DNA from: a virus
Lineage: Duplodnaviria > Heunggongvirae > Uroviricota > Caudoviricetes
DNA length: 8,876 nt
Virus record (IMG/VR): IMGVR_UViG_2703718798_000006
Reading direction: 5' to 3' (one strand)
Shown here piece after piece: positions 117 through 8,876 of this stretch. A program made the translations under genes and the position numbers. The stretch's first letter is position 1. Every line of letters begins with the position of its first letter. A model generated the notes under the pieces. It did not search any database. It had not been told where the DNA came from and worked only from the letters and a program-made list of their open reading frames with translations.

Positions 117-1109
117 CTAGTCAATGGACAGTTTATGGACACTATCAGCCAGCGGATTAAAGCTAATCGCATCCTGTAAAAAGTCCGGTGAAAAATGCGC
201 ATACGTCATCGTTTGTTGAATCGTGGCGTGCCCAAGGATTCGCTGTAACGTAACGATATTTCCGCCGTTCATCATGAAATGCGTGGCGAACGTGTGACGC
301 ATAACGTGAGTCGCCTGACCTTTGGGTAAATCCGGTTTCACCTCCTGAAGGATATCCCGAAAACGGATGTAATCAGCCTGGTACAATAGCCCGGTTTTTC
401 GGGTTTTTATCAACGAAAGCACCGTATCAGAAACAGGAACCGCGCGGGATTTTCCATTCTTTGTGTTAAAGAACATTACGCGGTTACCAACGATATGCTC
501 ACCACGTAAGCCAGCTGCTTCCCCCCACCTTGCGCCAGTGGAAAGACACAGAACAGCAACACGACGCGCATCCCCCTCGAGTCGTTCAAGCAGCCGATCA
601 ATCTCATCATCTGAAAGAAAGGCCATTTCTGTATTCCTGACCTTGAGCTTACGTATTCCACGCACCGGGTTTTCGTTATGGAAAACCTCCGCATCAATCA
701 GCGAGGTAAACATTGCAGACAAGGCGCACAAATCACGATTAACACTGGAGGGCATTAATCCGGCCTGTAATTTGTCTGAACGATACCCGAGCATAAACTT
801 TCGCGTCATCTCACTGGCGCGGGGGTCCCTCATCTCACGGTTTATTTTTTCCAGCCTGACCCTGTAAGTATCCCCGTAAGGCTGATTCCGGCCATCAAGC
901 ACCCACCAGGCATCTATCAGTTCGGATAACCGACGCTGATCAGCTGGCTTGGCCTGCCACGGTTTATCGTGGAAATTCTGCAAAACATACCTTTCAAACT
1001 CCTGTGCCTTTGACTTCAGGGTAAAAATCTTACGGATCCGCTTTCCTTCCGTCCCTTGCGGTCTTACATCAACCTTATAACGCCCGTCTTTGAGTTGCTT
1101 AATCGACAT
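117..1109 (-). CDS. int: Tyrosine site-specific integrase (P2/186 Int family), 330 aa from ATG at 1109
   Basis: ORF 117..1124 opens with TTG; first ATG at 1109 (MSIKQLKDGRY...) is preceded by GGAGGGG. Length ~P2 Int (337 aa). C-terminal catalytic region has H-x-x-R (VMRHTFATH) and GHATIQQTMTYAH with terminal Tyr, typical of tyrosine recombinases. Confidence 0.9.
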   Translation of the reverse strand: MSIKQLKDGRYKVDVRPQGTEGKRIRKIFTLKSKAQEFERYVLQNFHDKPWQAKPADQRRLSELIDAWWVLDGRNQPYGDTYRVRLEKINREMRDPRASEMTRKFMLGYRSDKLQAGLMPSSVNRDLCALSAMFTSLIDAEVFHNENPVRGIRKLKVRNTEMAFLSDDEIDRLLERLEGDARRVAVLCLSTGARWGEAAGLRGEHIVGNRVMFFNTKNGKSRAVPVSDTVLSLIKTRKTGLLYQADYIRFRDILQEVKPDLPKGQATHVMRHTFATHFMMNGGNIVTLQRILGHATIQQTMTYAHFSPDFLQDAISFNPLADSVHKLSID

Positions 1110-1178
1110 GATTAGCCCCTCCAACGGATGAATCAGCCGTACACTCTCTACGGGATGAAACCCGCTCGATGTACAGCG

Positions 1179-1520
1179 TTAGCCAGCATTGCGACGAGAT
1201 CGGGGTGATTTTTGGGTAATGCCGATTGAAACCTGATCGCCCTCCGACTGAATGGAGCCATCAAGAGAGAGAGCCGGGGCAACCTGCCCGGCAGCGGGAA
1301 ATGTTTTGTCGTGAAGTATCCACATAGTGTATTTTTCGAATCGCTCGACTTGGATTACTTTTTCTACAACCTCAATTCGCGCAGGTTTATATCCAGACTC
1401 ATAATTTCCTATAGTTCCTACAGAAACTCCCGTTACTTGCGAAAACTGAGATTGTGTAAGGTTTTCCGCGTTTCTGATTGCCTTTAGTTTTTTGGCGTAA
1501 TCTCTTGACATGTTCACCAT
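1179..1520 (-). CDS. Immunity repressor, P2 C-type (short HTH repressor); start ATG at 1520 (or 1511)
   Basis: ORF 1179..1661; in-frame ATGs at 1520 and 1511, SD GAGGA upstream of 1520. Sequence ...LTQSQFSQVTGVSVGTIGNYESG...FEKYTMWIL...GQVAPAL... follows the pattern I recall for P2 C (YESG, KYT-W, Q-APAL). Sits just upstream of int on the same strand, as in P2. Confidence 0.75.
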   Translation of the reverse strand: MVNMSRDYAKKLKAIRNAENLTQSQFSQVTGVSVGTIGNYESGYKPARIEVVEKVIQVERFEKYTMWILHDKTFPAAGQVAPALSLDGSIQSEGDQVSIGITQKSPRSRRNAG

Positions 1521-1534
1521 ACGATGAGTATCCT
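1505..1534 (+). promoter_or_regulatory. Putative rightward early promoter (Pe-like): -35 TTGACA (1505-1510), 18-bp spacer, -10 TATCCT (1529-1534)
   Basis: Perfect -35 hexamer and a TA...T -10 at acceptable spacing, pointing toward the cox-like gene; overlaps the repressor start, consistent with face-to-face promoter architecture in P2/186 switches. Confidence 0.5.
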
Positions 1535-1542
1535 CTATTCGA

Positions 1543-1562
1543 ACTTCACCACAGGGTGAAGT
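1543..1562. promoter_or_regulatory. Candidate operator: perfect 20-bp palindrome ACTTCACC-ACAG-GGTGAAGT
   Basis: 8-bp perfect inverted arms with 4-bp spacer, at the predicted Pe transcription start between the divergent repressor and cox-like genes. Confidence 0.4.
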
Positions 1563-1623
1563 AAACAAATCAAAACAAACCTTCATGATGCGCGACAAGC
1601 GCACCAACGCAAGAGGATAGCAA

Positions 1624-2148
1624 ATGCGGAAGTCAATTGCCGATAAAGAGTTATCTGACACACAAGCCCTTCAGGAAAACGACAGCATCACCGAATCCGT
1701 TGGCGCGGCAAACGACGATGAACACCAAGAGGAAAAGAAAAAACGCACCTACAAAAAAGGGGCAACCTTGCGACTGGATGGCCCGGTAGCCGGACTTTGC
1801 TCACTTGAAAAAGGGGCAGCCTATATCGGGTTGACAAAAGCTGCATTGCGCGTGGCGCTTCAGCGAAATCAGATGCCTGGACACAAGACCCGTTCAAACC
1901 CTGAAGATGAAAATTCGGATGGCGTGTGGTGGTTTAACGCCAGAGAGTGGGACAAGCTGGCTGACGAACTACCAGAATGCGAGCCGCCAGAATGGCACAA
2001 CTGGAAAAGCTACTGGACATACGACCGACAGAAAAGAAAGTTTTCCCCGGCAAACAAAGAAGACTGCCAGACCATCAATGGAAAGCGGGTTTACACAGGA
2101 AGAAAGTCAAAACTGGAGCAACACCAATACAGTGGAGGCAACCAGTGA
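1624..2148 (+). CDS. Cox/Apl-like excisionase or early regulator (HTH), unusually long at 174 aa
   Basis: ATG 1624 with strong SD AAGAGGA (1609-1615). Central segment LEKGAAYIGLTKAALRVALQRNQMPG...GVWWFNAREWDKL resembles the excisionase/AlpA/Cox HTH plus aromatic wing pattern. First rightward gene opposite the repressor. N-terminal ~60 aa is acidic and low-complexity. Confidence 0.5.
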   Translation: MRKSIADKELSDTQALQENDSITESVGAANDDEHQEEKKKRTYKKGATLRLDGPVAGLCSLEKGAAYIGLTKAALRVALQRNQMPGHKTRSNPEDENSDGVWWFNAREWDKLADELPECEPPEWHNWKSYWTYDRQKRKFSPANKEDCQTINGKRVYTGRKSKLEQHQYSGGNQ

Positions 2149-2232: not shown

Positions 2233-2688
2233 CTACCAGGCTGATGGATGATCATCATCAATATCAAACACATTTCTGTAAAAACGAGAATGTTGCAAGG
2301 GATGAATAAGCGACCCCCAACAATCATAAATATCAGCCAGTTCGAACACATCGTATGAGAGATGTTGAGCAAACGATTCGGCACCTTCAAAAGACTCAAA
2401 CACCTCATCATACAAGTGAATGTTTTCAGGATACGAAAGTGACAAGCAAAAACCAGACGTAGATTCCGTAACCAAGAAGACAAGGTGATATTTATCATTC
2501 ACCAGTGACTGAGCACATTTTTTTACAGAGCGAAGAATCACAGGGGAACGCGCGCCAATACGAAAGAGTTCTGCATGAGCACGGGCATCAACAAAACTGT
2601 GAAACCCCTCACTTCTTGCAAGCTCACGTTCGGCAGCACGCAAAACCCAAAACCACCGCCCAGATTCGGATGTAAGGATAATTTTCAT
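2233..2688 (-). CDS. Hypothetical protein, 151 aa, antisense to the early operon
   Basis: Only long ORF across 2233..2688; plus strand has no ORF >=60 aa from 2252 to 2574. Protein-like alternating beta/alpha pattern (MKIILTSESG..., PVILRSV..., HLVFLVTE...) with acidic C-terminus. ATG at 2688 has a weak SD. Confidence 0.45.
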   Translation of the reverse strand: MKIILTSESGRWFWVLRAAERELARSEGFHSFVDARAHAELFRIGARSPVILRSVKKCAQSLVNDKYHLVFLVTESTSGFCLSLSYPENIHLYDEVFESFEGAESFAQHLSYDVFELADIYDCWGSLIHPLQHSRFYRNVFDIDDDHPSAW

Positions 2689-2952
2689 ATGAATAAAGAG
2701 AAATCTCCGGATTATTTTGTGAAACGATTACAGGATGCAACAGAGTCAATGTTGATTGCCCTGAATAATTATTCTTACGAAGAGGCCGTAACGGTACTTG
2801 AGTGGATAAAGGAAAAAATAACGGAAGACAGCATCGTCAAGATGCAGAGTATCAACATCTCCCGTGACAAAACATTTCCACTGCGAATACCGCCAAAACG
2901 ACGACTGGTTTACTCGATACCAGTCTCAATGCAGTGCAAATTGCCGAAATAG
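2689..2952 (+). CDS. Hypothetical protein, 87 aa (alternative start ATG 2575 gives 125 aa)
   Basis: ATG 2689 preceded by AAGGA (2674-2678); the ORF upstream of 2689 overlaps the minus-strand gene and encodes a proline-rich low-complexity stretch. Confidence 0.5.
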   Translation: MNKEKSPDYFVKRLQDATESMLIALNNYSYEEAVTVLEWIKEKITEDSIVKMQSINISRDKTFPLRIPPKRRLVYSIPVSMQCKLPK

Positions 2953-3104
2953 TTTATGAGAAAACATAAATACTCCTTTGTGTGGTTGGTTATCGTTACA
3001 ACAGTTCGGGCAAGAATTGCAAGGCGTAACGAAATTACTACAAAACCATGCGCCGGGCATGGCTAAAAACCCGGCACAAATTCACAGCAGCAGTAGGGAT
3101 TTTT

Positions 3105-3449
3105 ATGAAGAAACCGGGAAATTTTTCACAGCAGAATTTTCGAACAAGTGCCGAACGCCACGTTGCACGCCAGCACTTCCGCAAAAATAGTGCGACCACA
3201 ACCACTGAAATCCATGCCACACCAGACGGTCACCCGGTAAAACAAACCGGCAAGCACACCTGGGCGATTGGCGACACTGGCATCGTTATTCACAAAAGTT
3301 TTCGCAGCCCTGTTACTGGCCGATTTAATTTCACCCTGACTCGCGGGGATGATTACTTCGGACAGGACTTCACATTTTTTGAAGCCTTAAGAACGGCAGA
3401 CAGATTAATCAGCGGCCTGCGTTTTCAATATCCGGGAAGCAAGCACTGA
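3105..3449 (+). CDS. Hypothetical protein, 114 aa (ORF opens at ATG 3048)
   Basis: ATG 3105 preceded by AGGGA with 5-nt spacing; ATG 3048 has no SD. Globular-looking composition. Confidence 0.6.
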   Translation: MKKPGNFSQQNFRTSAERHVARQHFRKNSATTTTEIHATPDGHPVKQTGKHTWAIGDTGIVIHKSFRSPVTGRFNFTLTRGDDYFGQDFTFFEALRTADRLISGLRFQYPGSKH

Positions 3450-6558: not shown

Positions 6559-6899
6559 TTTATATCGCCGGTCCCATGACCGGATACAAAGACGACAACA
6601 GACTGGAGTTTTGCCTGGCGGACCTGAAGCTTAGGTACGCCGGAAACATTGTTCTTAATCCTGCCGTACTGCCTGACGGATTAAGCCAGCAGCAGTACAT
6701 GAGCATTTGTATTCCGATGCTCATGTGTGCCGATGCCATTTACTTACTGGATGGATGGGAAGAGTCCGCTGGCGCACGGGCTGAGTACGCAATGGCACTC
6801 AAGCTGAACATGCCGGTGTCATTCCCGGAAAATCGGGCGGCCGGCGAAACTGTCGCACAGCTGCTTGGCAAATCAAAAGCCGCACAGGCGACTGAGTAA
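6549..6899 (+). CDS. Nucleoside 2-deoxyribosyltransferase-like (DUF4406-type) protein, 116 aa
   Basis: SD GGGAGG upstream. N-terminal VIYIAGPMTG and later ...DAIYLLDGWEESAGARAEYAMA... match the motif pattern I associate with the NDT-like/DUF4406 fold. Confidence 0.65.
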   Translation: MAVIYIAGPMTGYKDDNRLEFCLADLKLRYAGNIVLNPAVLPDGLSQQQYMSICIPMLMCADAIYLLDGWEESAGARAEYAMALKLNMPVSFPENRAAGETVAQLLGKSKAAQATE

Positions 6900-7337
6900 C
6901 CGACCGGAGATCGAAACATGATTGCGCGAAGAGCTGCCAACCGCCTCACAGGCTTTATTCCAGGCAAGATTAATCATGCACTCCATGATGGGACTGTCAC
7001 TTTCCTCAACAAAGGAGAGGCGCGCAATCATGCATTCCTTACTAATCACATGGCGCTGACTGATAAGGCGCTGGTAACTGACTGCCTGCCATTCAGCCTT
7101 TTCAGCCCTGCGTTCAAAACTGGCAGCCATGCACTGCCAAAGCAGAAACAGAACCACACTGAAGAGTACCAACACAACAAAATCACACAGGACAAACGCC
7201 GCAACACCAACCAGAAAGGCGCTGATTCGCAGAGCAGCAGAAACGCGTCGGTGAAACACACATGTAATACGTTCAAGCCAGTAGCTGTACCACAGGTCAA
7301 AAAGAATGTCGTAATCAGAAGGGAGCTTATCACTCAT
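6873..7337 (-). CDS. Hypothetical two-TM membrane protein, 154 aa, antisense to the early operon (alternative start ATG 7397)
   Basis: Internal ATG (7337) of minus ORF 6873..7673. Two adjacent hydrophobic helices (ISAFLVGVAAFVLC-D-FVVLVLFSVVLFLLW) flanked by basic residues. The overlapping plus ORF 6918..8030 is low-complexity and runs through two terminators. Weak SD (GGGG 10 nt upstream). Confidence 0.4.
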   Translation of the reverse strand: MSDKLPSDYDILFDLWYSYWLERITCVFHRRVSAALRISAFLVGVAAFVLCDFVVLVLFSVVLFLLWQCMAASFERRAEKAEWQAVSYQRLISQRHVISKECMIARLSFVEESDSPIMECMINLAWNKACEAVGSSSRNHVSISGRLLSRLCGF

Positions 7338-7500
7338 CAGAAACACCCCGCGTATGCAGACAATCACCAGTTGCCAGGTGATATTAATTCGCCACATTCT
7401 AACCACATCAGCACGCAACACAAAAACCGCTTGCCAGCGTTCGCCTGGTCGGGTTACAGTTTTCCCGCACCTCATAAAACGGGTGCCGGGATTGCAACCC

Positions 7501-7542
7501 CCGCTGACTACACAAGCGCACAACCGCGCCAGCGGTTTTTTT
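7501..7542 (+). terminator. Strong Rho-independent terminator T1: stem CCGCTG/CAGCGG with internal GCGC/GCGC sub-stem, then T7
   Basis: 6-bp GC-rich outer stem (7501-7506 / 7530-7535) directly followed by TTTTTTT (7536-7542); 4-bp inner stem 7516-7519 / 7526-7529. Confidence 0.6.
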
Positions 7543-7582
7543 GTGCGTACCGCATCGTCACATCTTTTTCGCGTCAGAATTA

Positions 7583-7660
7583 TGGTGGGGCGTACAGGGC
7601 CGACTTCGGTCGGGCCGGGGTCTTGTGTAGCCGGTGGTTGCAACCCTGTACGTCTCACCA
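7583..7660 (+). ncRNA. Candidate structured RNA (sRNA or cis-acting leader/antiterminator) in the 17-bp stem fold
   Basis: 7583-7599 pairs with 7644-7660 over 17 bp including two G-U wobbles (7590-7653, 7588-7655), which are valid only in plus-strand RNA. Enclosed hairpin 7600-7604/7609-7613 has loop TTCG with C-G closing pair (cUUCGg). ORF-free region. Confidence 0.45.
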
Positions 7661-7692
7661 CCCAGAATTGCAACCTCTGGATGGTGAGTTTT
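7654..7692 (+). terminator. Putative intrinsic terminator T2: 7-bp + 5-bp stem (one mismatch), 9-nt loop, T4 tail; mutually exclusive with the 17-bp stem
   Basis: CTCACCA(7654-7660)/TGGTGAG(7682-7688) and CCAGA(7662-7666)/TCTGG(7676-7680), followed by TTTT (7689-7692). The 5' arm is also the 3' arm of the long stem at 7583-7660. Confidence 0.45.
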
Positions 7693-7720
7693 CAAAACTT
7701 ACTACACAAGAGGCCACACC

Positions 7721-7948
7721 ATGGCAAACCGCAAGCAACAGCGCGCCCGCGCTGAGCGTCTTCACATCCACACCGAAATCAACCGCAGACTCCATCGGGC
7801 TGCATCTGTCTCCTTCATCATGCAGTCAAACGTATTACACCGACTTAACGACGGTATCGCTGCCGGGTATTACGCGGCAGTCTTCAGCTATCTGGCCGAA
7901 GACCTGGCAGAACTGCAGGACCTTATCAACCAGCAACACCACCACTAA
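7721..7948 (+). CDS. Hypothetical small basic/helical protein, 75 aa, ending HHH
   Basis: ATG 7721 preceded by AAGAGG (7708-7713) at 7-nt spacing; first gene after the structured leader. Confidence 0.6.
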   Translation: MANRKQQRARAERLHIHTEINRRLHRAASVSFIMQSNVLHRLNDGIAAGYYAAVFSYLAEDLAELQDLINQQHHH

Positions 7949-8016
7949 ACAACATCCTGAAGCCATCCCGCACCCGTGCGCGGGAGGCTTCCGCACGTCT
8001 GTTACCGGAGGTTCTC

Positions 8017-8427
8017 ATGAAGAGCGTTAAGGGACTTTCAGATATTCAGGATTTTTTTAACTGGATGTGGGCAGTGGATCCCCGGCTGGCTTCCCGCCTG
8101 AACGACTGGCACGACTATTACCGCCGCGCCTGTAAACAGGCCGCCAGACACGTCACCACATACGGGGATTTCTCCTTCACCGTTGACGACCGTTACCGCG
8201 TGGACGTGAAAGGTGATGGTTTTGGTTTATTTCACATCAACGGAACCGACAGCACCGCCATCAGTTGGTCGTCGTCAGAGATGACGCTTGTTCTGGAAAT
8301 GACAACGCACAGCGTGGCCGTGAAAGGCATATACACCGCAGAAGACTTTATCGGTGAATATCAGCGCCTTCTCGTGCTGTACCGCGCGGCGTTTCAGGCG
8401 GCGACTGCCGGGGAGTGCGACGCATGA
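8017..8427 (+). CDS. Hypothetical protein, 136 aa
   Basis: ATG 8017 preceded by GGAGG (8007-8011); stop overlaps the next start (ATGA 8424-8427). Confidence 0.65.
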   Translation: MKSVKGLSDIQDFFNWMWAVDPRLASRLNDWHDYYRRACKQAARHVTTYGDFSFTVDDRYRVDVKGDGFGLFHINGTDSTAISWSSSEMTLVLEMTTHSVAVKGIYTAEDFIGEYQRLLVLYRAAFQAATAGECDA

Positions 8428-8651
8428 GTGACCACAATGCACAGCTGGCGTACCCGTGGAACGCCCCGCTACCGGTTATCGATCCTGAAACGTTCGGCAG
8501 AGCGCAGCCAACCGCATTACGCCAGGCCATTCAGAGCTACATCAACGAGGATATTCGCACTGACGCCAGACTGGATGAAGAAACCGTCGCCTTCCTGACA
8601 ACCACAGACGAAGGGAAGCGAATTAATTCGCATCTTCAAACTGGTATCTGA
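8424..8651 (+). CDS. Hypothetical protein, 75 aa (ORF opens with GTG at 8415)
   Basis: ATG 8424 translationally coupled to the upstream gene; GGGGAG upstream. Confidence 0.5.
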   Translation: MSDHNAQLAYPWNAPLPVIDPETFGRAQPTALRQAIQSYINEDIRTDARLDEETVAFLTTTDEGKRINSHLQTGI

Positions 8652-8655
8652 AGCC

Positions 8656-8876
8656 ATGGCAGAGCTGCGCGCCCTGCCGCCGTTTCTTGCCGGTCCGCTC
8701 ATCCGTGACCTGGCGCGCCTGAGCCGCAAACAGGAGAGCGCACGCCGGGAAGGGCTTAAGAATAACAGCGCATATGCGGCGGATAACTTCGTTCGTCACG
8801 GGCTGCGTGCCCGCCTGAAACGTATCGCCCGTGTGAATGAACGCTTTGCCACCCCGGCCTTTAAGGCCACCGCCGC
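8656..8876 (+). CDS. 5' end of an ORF running off the window (>=73 codons); possibly the replication initiator (gpA-like) by position
   Basis: ATG 8656, 4 nt after the previous stop and in a different frame; open to the window end (MAELRALPPFLAGPLIRDLARLSRKQ...RIARVNERF...). Functional guess rests on P2 gene order and a faint recollection of P2 A; unverified. Confidence 0.4.
   Translation, partial: MAELRALPPFLAGPLIRDLARLSRKQESARREGLKNNSAYAADNFVRHGLRARLKRIARVNERFATPAFKATA

Follow-up and report, generated by a model that had tools for sequence, protein, structure and literature searches.

What are the repeated motifs in front of a small early gene of a P2-like prophage for? The DNA analyzed here (8,876 nt, referred to throughout as the window) corresponds to the early region of a P2-like E. 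coli prophage (Peduoviridae, Xuanwuvirus/P88-type). It carries an integrase gene (117-1124, minus strand), a gene for an HTH repressor (1179-1661, minus strand), and Cox (1624-2148), which is followed by early genes. A divergent gene for a 154-aa protein (6873-7337, minus strand) comes next, and between it and a plus-strand gene for a 75-aa protein (7721-7948) lies the stretch that holds the repeats. Farther downstream are a gene for a 136-aa protein in the same orientation (8017-8427, plus strand; PHROG 3237) and, following it, a replication endonuclease gene (from 8424).

Two motifs are repeated in this stretch. Motif 1 (ATTGCAACC) has just two exact copies in the window, at 7491-7499 and 7667-7675, against an expectation of 0.17; 2 or more copies appeared in 2/200 shuffles. 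Motif 2 (ACTACACAAG) occurs exactly at 7507-7516 and 7701-7710. An earlier sequence-only reading of the region had reported both repeats correctly but had overlooked a further copy of motif 2, with one mismatch, on the minus strand at 7622-7631; at least 3 copies of this motif arose in 1/200 shuffles. Read on the plus strand, the reverse complement of motif 2 (CTTGTGTAG) occupies 7622-7630, between both motif 2 copies and, as described below, in a hairpin loop of a C4-type RNA. The distance from motif 1 to motif 2 is 7 nt in the upstream pair and 25 nt in the downstream pair, and a 10-bp palindrome (GGTTGCAACC) sits at 7636-7645 between both copies, all of which agrees with the earlier description. 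That reading had also judged the repeats unlikely to arise by chance. Taken singly, each exact repeat is only moderately improbable; the ordered composite TTGCAA-N(5-30)-CTACA was found 4 times in the window against 0.13 expected and in 0/200 shuffles. We found no enrichment of TTGCAA across the window, where an excess had been suspected by eye: there are 8 copies compared with 5.1 ± 2.1 expected, and 30/200 shuffles reached 8. Three of the eight copies lie inside the RNA module.

A scan of the whole window against Rfam returned two matches only, both within the motif region. The C4 antisense RNA family (RF01695) matched over the full model (1-87) with 78 bits (gathering threshold, 45; E = 2e-14), and the isrK family (RF01394) matched 7467-7542 with 59.6 bits (gathering threshold, 50; E = 4e-11); both matches recurred when the scan was repeated on 7400-7760. 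A third family, c4-a1b1 (RF03163; gathering threshold, 46.7 bits), gave no match in 7400-7760 at E values up to 10; its scores are 51 bits for P1, 48.1 for Gifsy-1, and 44.1 for P4. The upstream half of the region is therefore recognized by the isrK model only, and it is also covered by the covarying sites described below.

These matches, together with promoter and terminator scans, place every repeat within a predicted plus-strand transcript. A predicted sigma-70 promoter (-35 TTGCCA, 18-nt spacer, -10 TACAGT) lies at 7431-7460, and from it we infer a transcription start near 7467, which is where the isrK match begins. The promoter blocks AAAAACCGCTTGCCA and GGTTACA(G/T)T do not vary among 12 related loci, despite differing upstream genes. 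The predicted product of this promoter is an IsrK-like leader, or short RNA, at 7467-7545 (the equivalent of seqA), laid out as a first hairpin, a second hairpin with a target site that we call a1 in its loop, a single-stranded target site b1, and a Rho-independent terminator (stem 7522-7537 plus U run, to 7545). Site a1 (TTGCAACC, 7492-7499) corresponds to the first copy of motif 1 and is complementary to an element a' at 7636-7643, while b1 (CTACACAAG, 7508-7516) corresponds to the first copy of motif 2 and is the exact complement of an element b' at 7622-7630.

Both a' and b' belong to the C4-type antisense RNA gene (7578-7665, plus strand), the equivalent of the P4 CI RNA and of Salmonella STnc1160. 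The predicted C4 fold has a 17-bp closing stem (7583-7599 with 7644-7660), a first hairpin with a CUUCGG loop, a second hairpin (7614-7635), and an 8-nt linker. Element b' (CUUGUGUAG) lies in the 12-nt loop of the second hairpin, where it could pair with b1 or with a downstream site, b2. Element a' (GGUUGCAA) is the linker, which is unpaired in the Rfam structure line, and could pair with a1 or with a downstream site, a2; it is also the core of the palindrome. The palindrome is thus this part of the antisense RNA rather than the separate element that it had been taken for, and its resemblance to motif 1 on the same strand stems solely from the self-complementarity of TTGCAA. Motif 1 recurs as a2 (TTGCAACC, 7668-7675; inverted repeat I6), which begins 7 nt past the C4 stem and is complementary to a' at 8/8 positions. 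The second copy of motif 2 is b2 (CTACACAAGA, 7702-7711), which overlaps the Shine-Dalgarno sequence GAGG (7710-7713) of the 75-aa gene; its partner TCTTGTGTAG at 7621-7630 is 100% complementary to it (10/10; inverted repeat I9).

The internal folds of the IsrK-like and C4 RNAs were taken from the Rfam matches, and the minimum-energy fold of 7578-7665 has inner hairpins unlike the Rfam consensus. For whole molecules, RNAduplex takes no account of intramolecular structure, and its energies therefore resembled those of shuffled controls; we used only the local duplexes of the individual elements, which range from -12 to -18 kcal/mol. In addition, a2 sits at the apex of an alternative hairpin formed by 7654-7666 with 7676-7688, a placement seen in the 15 loci listed and in 34/63 by a strict criterion. 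Here the closing stem of C4 loses its 3' strand to a downstream partner, which points to folds that exclude one another as long as the transcript is unprocessed.

If the repeats are RNA pairing sites, they should change together with their partners, and this is what related prophages reveal. In an alignment of 12 P88-like loci (mean identity, 90%), the six patches a1, b1, b', a', a2, and b2 are the sole variable parts. For the upstream pairing of a1/b1 with a'/b', 99.4% of cells are paired and 9/15 pairs are compensated, and 0/500 shuffles reach the covariation score; control partners slid along the alignment gave 22 to 51% paired. Taken separately in the 12 loci, the a1:a' helix (36-41/182-187) has 98.6% of cells paired with 3 compensated pairs, and b1:b' has 100% paired with 6 compensated pairs. 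The downstream pairing of a2/b2 with a'/b' behaves similarly (94.9% of cells paired, 9 compensated pairs), as does its b2:b' part (98.3%, 5 compensated pairs). The earlier reading had looked to conservation in related prophages as the test of its motifs: their position is indeed kept, while their sequences vary and covary with the C4 loop and linker. The two halves of this code are also mixed between loci, as one locus (L075) has the b allele of the window with another a, and a second (L049) has the a allele of the window with another b. Nor is the reassortment of these alleles tied to the adjacent protein genes.

The same rule extends beyond the P88-like group. Searching viral contigs with a pattern for the conserved core of C4 gave 120 loci, of which 77 passed a stem filter and 75 had usable flanks. 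These 75 loci contain approximately 50 distinct combinations of loop and linker. A complement of at least 7 nt to the hairpin loop is present upstream in 55/75 and downstream in 67/75, and the linker has such a complement upstream in 74/75 and downstream in 69/75; control windows elsewhere in the 75 loci contained one of at least 7 nt in only 7 to 9%. The complements lie at near-constant offsets, with the downstream loop complement abutting a Shine-Dalgarno sequence and ATG, and about 60 further C4 loci obey the same pairing rule. By complementarity and covariation, a' and b' can therefore pair with a2 and b2, and b2 covers the predicted ribosome site of the 75-aa gene.

The product of that gene points to what the pairing might control. 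The 75-aa protein matches the derepression protein family (Pfam PF25738), if marginally, at 29.2 bits against a gathering threshold of 27 (2 bits above it), and is 36% identical to P4 epsilon over 50 aa (E = 5e-9); its homologues are named "derepression protein" in RefSeq. P4 epsilon is an anti-repressor that inactivates the P2 C repressor. By this likeness the 75-aa product is a putative anti-repressor that would inactivate the prophage repressor. In other C4 modules the gene behind b2 encodes Rha, Bro-N, AntA/ANT, or P22_AR_N, which are anti-repressor-type regulators, and in one case a helicase. For the genes farther downstream, the 136-aa protein shows no similarity to P4 orf151, and no NCBIfam match was found for the five window proteins tested. 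The replication gene contains a 65-nt deletion; perhaps this prophage is defective and no longer depends on the module.

The C4 gene itself may be open to ribosomes. From a conserved AUG at the 5' end of C4, an upstream reading frame of 57 codons (7582-7755, plus strand) continues across C4 and terminates 35 nt inside the 75-aa gene. The frame set by this AUG is stop-free through C4 in 58/61 loci, compared with 25 and 35 for the other two frames. Two long open reading frames that overlap the module, at 6918-8030 (plus strand) and 6873-7673 (minus strand), were rejected as genes: their homologues carry indels of 1 to 2 nt, the covariation is of the RNA type, and RefSeq has no such genes.

The arrangement closely resembles three known systems. 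In P4, the CI RNA and the seqA region match the same Rfam C4 and isrK models as the window does, and the first recognizable downstream protein gene is epsilon, the homologue of the 75-aa gene, with a replication gene further on in both. P4 CI acts mainly via premature transcription termination. To our knowledge, P4 has no separate protein repressor, whereas the window also has a P2-type C/Cox switch. With P1/P7 immI the module shares a promoter, a1, b1, a terminator-like hairpin, c4 with b' in a loop and a' in the linker, a2, and b2. The P1 GenBank record has these in the same order, namely, a1 (TTGACAG), b1 (GTTAGTGC), c4, a2 directly after c4, and b2, with gaps from a to b of 7 and 22 nt compared with 7 and 25 nt in the window. 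The P1 b2 site abuts the icd Shine-Dalgarno sequence, just as b2 of the window does at the 75-aa gene, and P1 c4 scores 68.8 bits with the Rfam C4 model under which the window scores 78, with the same RNA fold. The systems differ in the sequences of the sites themselves (TTGACAG and GTTAGTG in P1), in cargo (icd and ant1/2 in P1, an epsilon-like 75-aa protein in the window), and in host element, a plasmid prophage for P1 and a P2-like myovirus at a chromosomal site for the window. In addition, P1 has a C1 operator on its c4 promoter, and none is evident in the window. In P1/P7, c4 RNA blocks the ant mRNA around its ribosome site (PMC12197685).

In the lambdoid prophage Gifsy-1, the shared features are IsrK with its terminator, a C4-like RNA overlapped by an open reading frame, an anti-repressor gene (anrP), and a b2 site that abuts the Shine-Dalgarno sequence; the isrK model also matches Gifsy-1 IsrK. 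Its cargo is different, since AnrP turns on AntQ, whereas the window is P2-like with epsilon-type cargo. Numbered from the IsrK start, a1 of Gifsy-1 spans U26-U32 and a' spans A158-A164. Two compensatory mutant pairs, G28A/C162U and G31A/C159U, have been described for this system (Hershko-Shalev et al. 2016, PMC4825925), and at these mapped positions G28:C162 and G31:C159 are exactly a1:a' pairs. In the same study, the short leader RNA IsrK activates translation in trans, and activation needs translation of orf45 (PMC4825925), the equivalent of the 7582-7755 frame that is predicted here from sequence. Binding of such a leader to Hfq, like its trans-activation of the reading frames downstream, is known for Gifsy-1 only (PMC4825925). 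The authors likened IsrK to P4 seqA and STnc1160 to the CI RNA, and they did not use the a/b site description or the C4 name (PMC4825925).

Collectively, these data make it very likely that 7431-7720 is a C4 antisense-RNA immunity module of the type represented by P1/P7 immI (c4-icd-ant), P4 CI (seqA-seqB-seqC), and Gifsy-1 IsrK-STnc1160-anrP. The resulting switch probably keeps the anti-repressor gene of this P2-like prophage silent. In the mechanism that we propose, transcripts would start near 7467 from the predicted promoter at 7431-7460, and most of them probably end at the terminator (7522-7545), yielding a short IsrK-like RNA that would show a1 in a loop and b1 in single-stranded form. 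Transcripts that read through would hold C4 (7578-7665), which is probably excised as a stable RNA of approximately 80 nt. Its a' and b' elements would then engage a2 (7668-7675) and b2 (7702-7711), whether in cis or on a second transcript. Such pairing would block ribosome binding at the 75-aa gene (AUG at 7721), as b2 overlaps the Shine-Dalgarno sequence GAGG. By blocking translation there, it would keep the anti-repressor off, in the lysogen as well as in a superinfecting phage that shares its specificity. Expression of the 136-aa and replication genes would probably be lowered too, as the C4-controlled leader may exert polar effects on both and so coregulate them. Sites a1 and b1 would compete for a' and b', either in cis, giving an inactive folded leader, or in trans, where the IsrK-like RNA would act as a decoy that frees the ribosome site; this competition would constitute the switch. 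A trans-acting C4 RNA would thus add a second layer of immunity. The two halves of this scheme have precedents in P1/P7 and Gifsy-1, where pairing blocks translation and an upstream copy or short leader RNA counteracts it (PMC12197685; PMC4825925).

The closest competing explanation is that the patches act only in cis, as alternative folds of the leader transcript in the manner of an attenuator or of the Gifsy-1 "structure A/B," with neither a stable trans-acting C4 nor immunity. For Gifsy-1, experiments showed the a1:a' helix to form inside one transcript and to set the translationally silent state (PMC4825925). The authors of that work favored mainly cis refolding plus IsrK in trans over a free C4-like repressor, and constitutive STnc1160 gave no relief of IsrK toxicity (PMC4825925). 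In the window, the alternative downstream partner of the C4 stem 3' strand, which holds a2 in a hairpin loop, and the upstream frame that is open through C4 are both in keeping with this idea. However, strong conservation of the 17-bp closing stem and a match over the whole model fit a discrete RNA, and P1 c4 is annotated in GenBank as a discrete 77-nt RNA. P1 c4 and P4 CI are processed, trans-acting RNAs. STnc1160, moreover, is a stable RNA species in Salmonella (PMC4825925). We consider an exclusively cis-acting leader improbable, and it overlaps with the C4 immunity module as proposed here rather than excluding it.

The sequence-only reading had taken the repeats for protein-binding sites or a duplicated regulatory unit. 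It was right that they are functional recognition sites within one regulatory unit, but they are best explained as sites of RNA-RNA pairing. Short intergenic repeats beside regulatory genes, one of them a perfect 10-bp palindrome, are indeed what DNA sites bound by a protein of phage or host origin (Cox, the C repressor, the 75-aa protein, or IHF) might look like. Yet these lie downstream of the predicted promoter and inside RNA family matches, and their sequences differ among near-identical prophages, always changing together with the complementary loop and linker, which an operator does not need. The independence of the a/b alleles from the adjacent protein genes likewise argues against a protein partner encoded there. 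Since the sites fall within the transcript and track their RNA complement, the operator reading is unsupported, and we regard it as very unlikely. Even less probable is that the repeats are chance matches or the functionless relic of a local duplication. The modest rarity of the single repeats in shuffled sequence would allow this, but the composite is absent from all shuffles, the two units are alike only at the sites themselves, and covariation across dozens of loci already refutes it.

A looser, third copy of the motif pair at 3016-3042, which the earlier reading had also pointed out, is present but is not a target of C4. It could pair through only 6 + 5 nt, and about 0.13 such extra matches are expected per window. 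It also fails by covariation: E. coli STEC17-183 matches 2950-3200 at 100% identity despite carrying another C4 allele, and the copy is absent from E. coli N51, whose C4 module is identical to that of the window. Across 77 loci, extra a and b pairs elsewhere numbered 67 on the same strand and 55 on the opposite strand, which is no enrichment. The copy at 3016-3042 is a chance occurrence.

The module is common in E. coli, and its alleles are diverse. A 296-nt module sequence matched 718 of 5,426 complete E. coli genomes (approximately 13%), and only one of these, N51, has the exact allele of the window, in a module that is 100% identical next to flanking early genes that differ. In N51 the module lies at 3316424-3316719 of NZ_CM165887.1. 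The exact allele had no match in species-representative genomes, and a second scan, with the conserved ribosome site and gene start, hit a single contig. STEC17-183, the closest relative overall, shares 94.6% identity with the window and only 86.5% with the module, where it has a different allele (a, TTTCGCAG; b, CTAGCAAAG). RefSeq annotates no RNA in this region of E. coli genomes, and the module is either left unannotated or miscalled as an "ash family protein."

C4 biology has been textbook material for P1 and P4 since about 1990. All components of the module have curated Rfam families, and the logic of the sites is already described for P1/P7, P4, and Gifsy-1; the gain is thus one of annotation and scope, not a new principle. 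What may be less appreciated is that C4 and an epsilon-type gene occur together in P2-like, helper-type phages, that the a and b alleles reassort, and that an open frame runs through C4. It is conceivable, though we put it forward only tentatively, that P88-type prophages gate an epsilon-type anti-repressor, and perhaps replication, by a C4 RNA with a two-part a/b code whose gene is also read by ribosomes. If this were true, independent reassortment of a and b would give many mutually non-cross-reacting immunity types in polylysogens, and an RNA gene would underlie the annotations "Phage_ASH" (Pfam) and "ash family protein" (PGAP). For the locus itself, a vague repeated motif is replaced by a precise proposed circuit that specifies which RNA would pair where and which gene would be silenced. 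The table of a and b alleles would predict which prophages are mutually immune at the C4 layer, and this bears on induction, on polylysogeny, and on conflicts between phages and satellites of the P2/P4 type.

The C4-type antisense RNA carries a conserved AUG (AAUUAUGG) at its 5' end, from which a reading frame runs through the RNA gene (window 7582-7755). We compared all three frames at 61 C4 loci among L001 to L123. Across C4, the AUG frame was free of stop codons at 58 of these 61 loci, versus 25 and 35 in the two alternative frames, and it was still open at +45 nt at 48 of them, versus 16 and 12; kinship among the loci qualifies both sets of counts. The counterpart of this frame in Gifsy-1 is orf45, whose translation is required for activation (PMC4825925).

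The same region is touched by a protein family in Pfam, PF10554 ("Ash protein family"). Against the conceptual translation over the region of C4 and the IsrK-like leader RNA (window 7354-7755, plus strand), this model scored 21 bits, under the threshold of 26; against the old "cI gene product" open reading frame (ORF) of P4 (L124, 8168-8584, minus strand), it scored 59.7 bits. In some E. coli genomes, PGAP annotates the module as "ash family protein." The Ash protein family seems to have been built on an RNA gene or on the upstream frame belonging to it.

Immediately 5' of the -35 element of the predicted promoter lies an invariant block, ACACAAAAACCGCTTGC (window 7418-7434), which forms an inverted repeat with the IsrK terminator in its 3' half (GCCAGCGGTTTTTTTGT, window 7528-7544); the two are 88% complementary. 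The minus strand of the block resembles a weak terminator, with a hairpin and then a T run.

The gene for the replication endonuclease gpA is broken at the end of the window (8424-8876): positions 8424-8651 correspond to residues 1 to 71 of the homologue in E. coli strain N51, and positions 8656-8876 correspond to residues 100 to 172 in a different frame. DNA alignment revealed a 65-nt deletion after approximately position 8637, which results in the frameshift and the stop codon at 8649-8651. The prophage may be replication incompetent; alternatively, the break may stem from faulty assembly. Two back-to-back ORFs lacking a Pfam match (151 amino acids, 2233-2688, minus strand; 87 amino acids, 2689-2952, plus strand) occupy window 2233-2952, with cox on one side and the DUF4761 gene on the other. 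This pair is missing from P88, Shae_phiSM, and N51 and looks like an inserted cassette.

Among species-representative genome contigs, only L126 (1355-1375) carried a ribosome site and gene start of the P88 type. This contig is labeled "Vagococcus sp. WN89Y," a Gram-positive genus, and is probably a contaminant or a mislabeled assembly. On one metagenomic viral contig (L005, 2210-5050), the downstream C4 target site b2 gates a 946-amino-acid helicase (ResIII and Helicase_C domains) that is split by an intein. In viral contig L036 (5183-5460), the upstream target site a1 (TTCTCAC) is mismatched to both its own a' and a2 (TTTCCAC); b1, unlike a1, matches. The locus looks like a recombinant with a mismatched upstream decoy site, and it would be a natural test of the role of a1.
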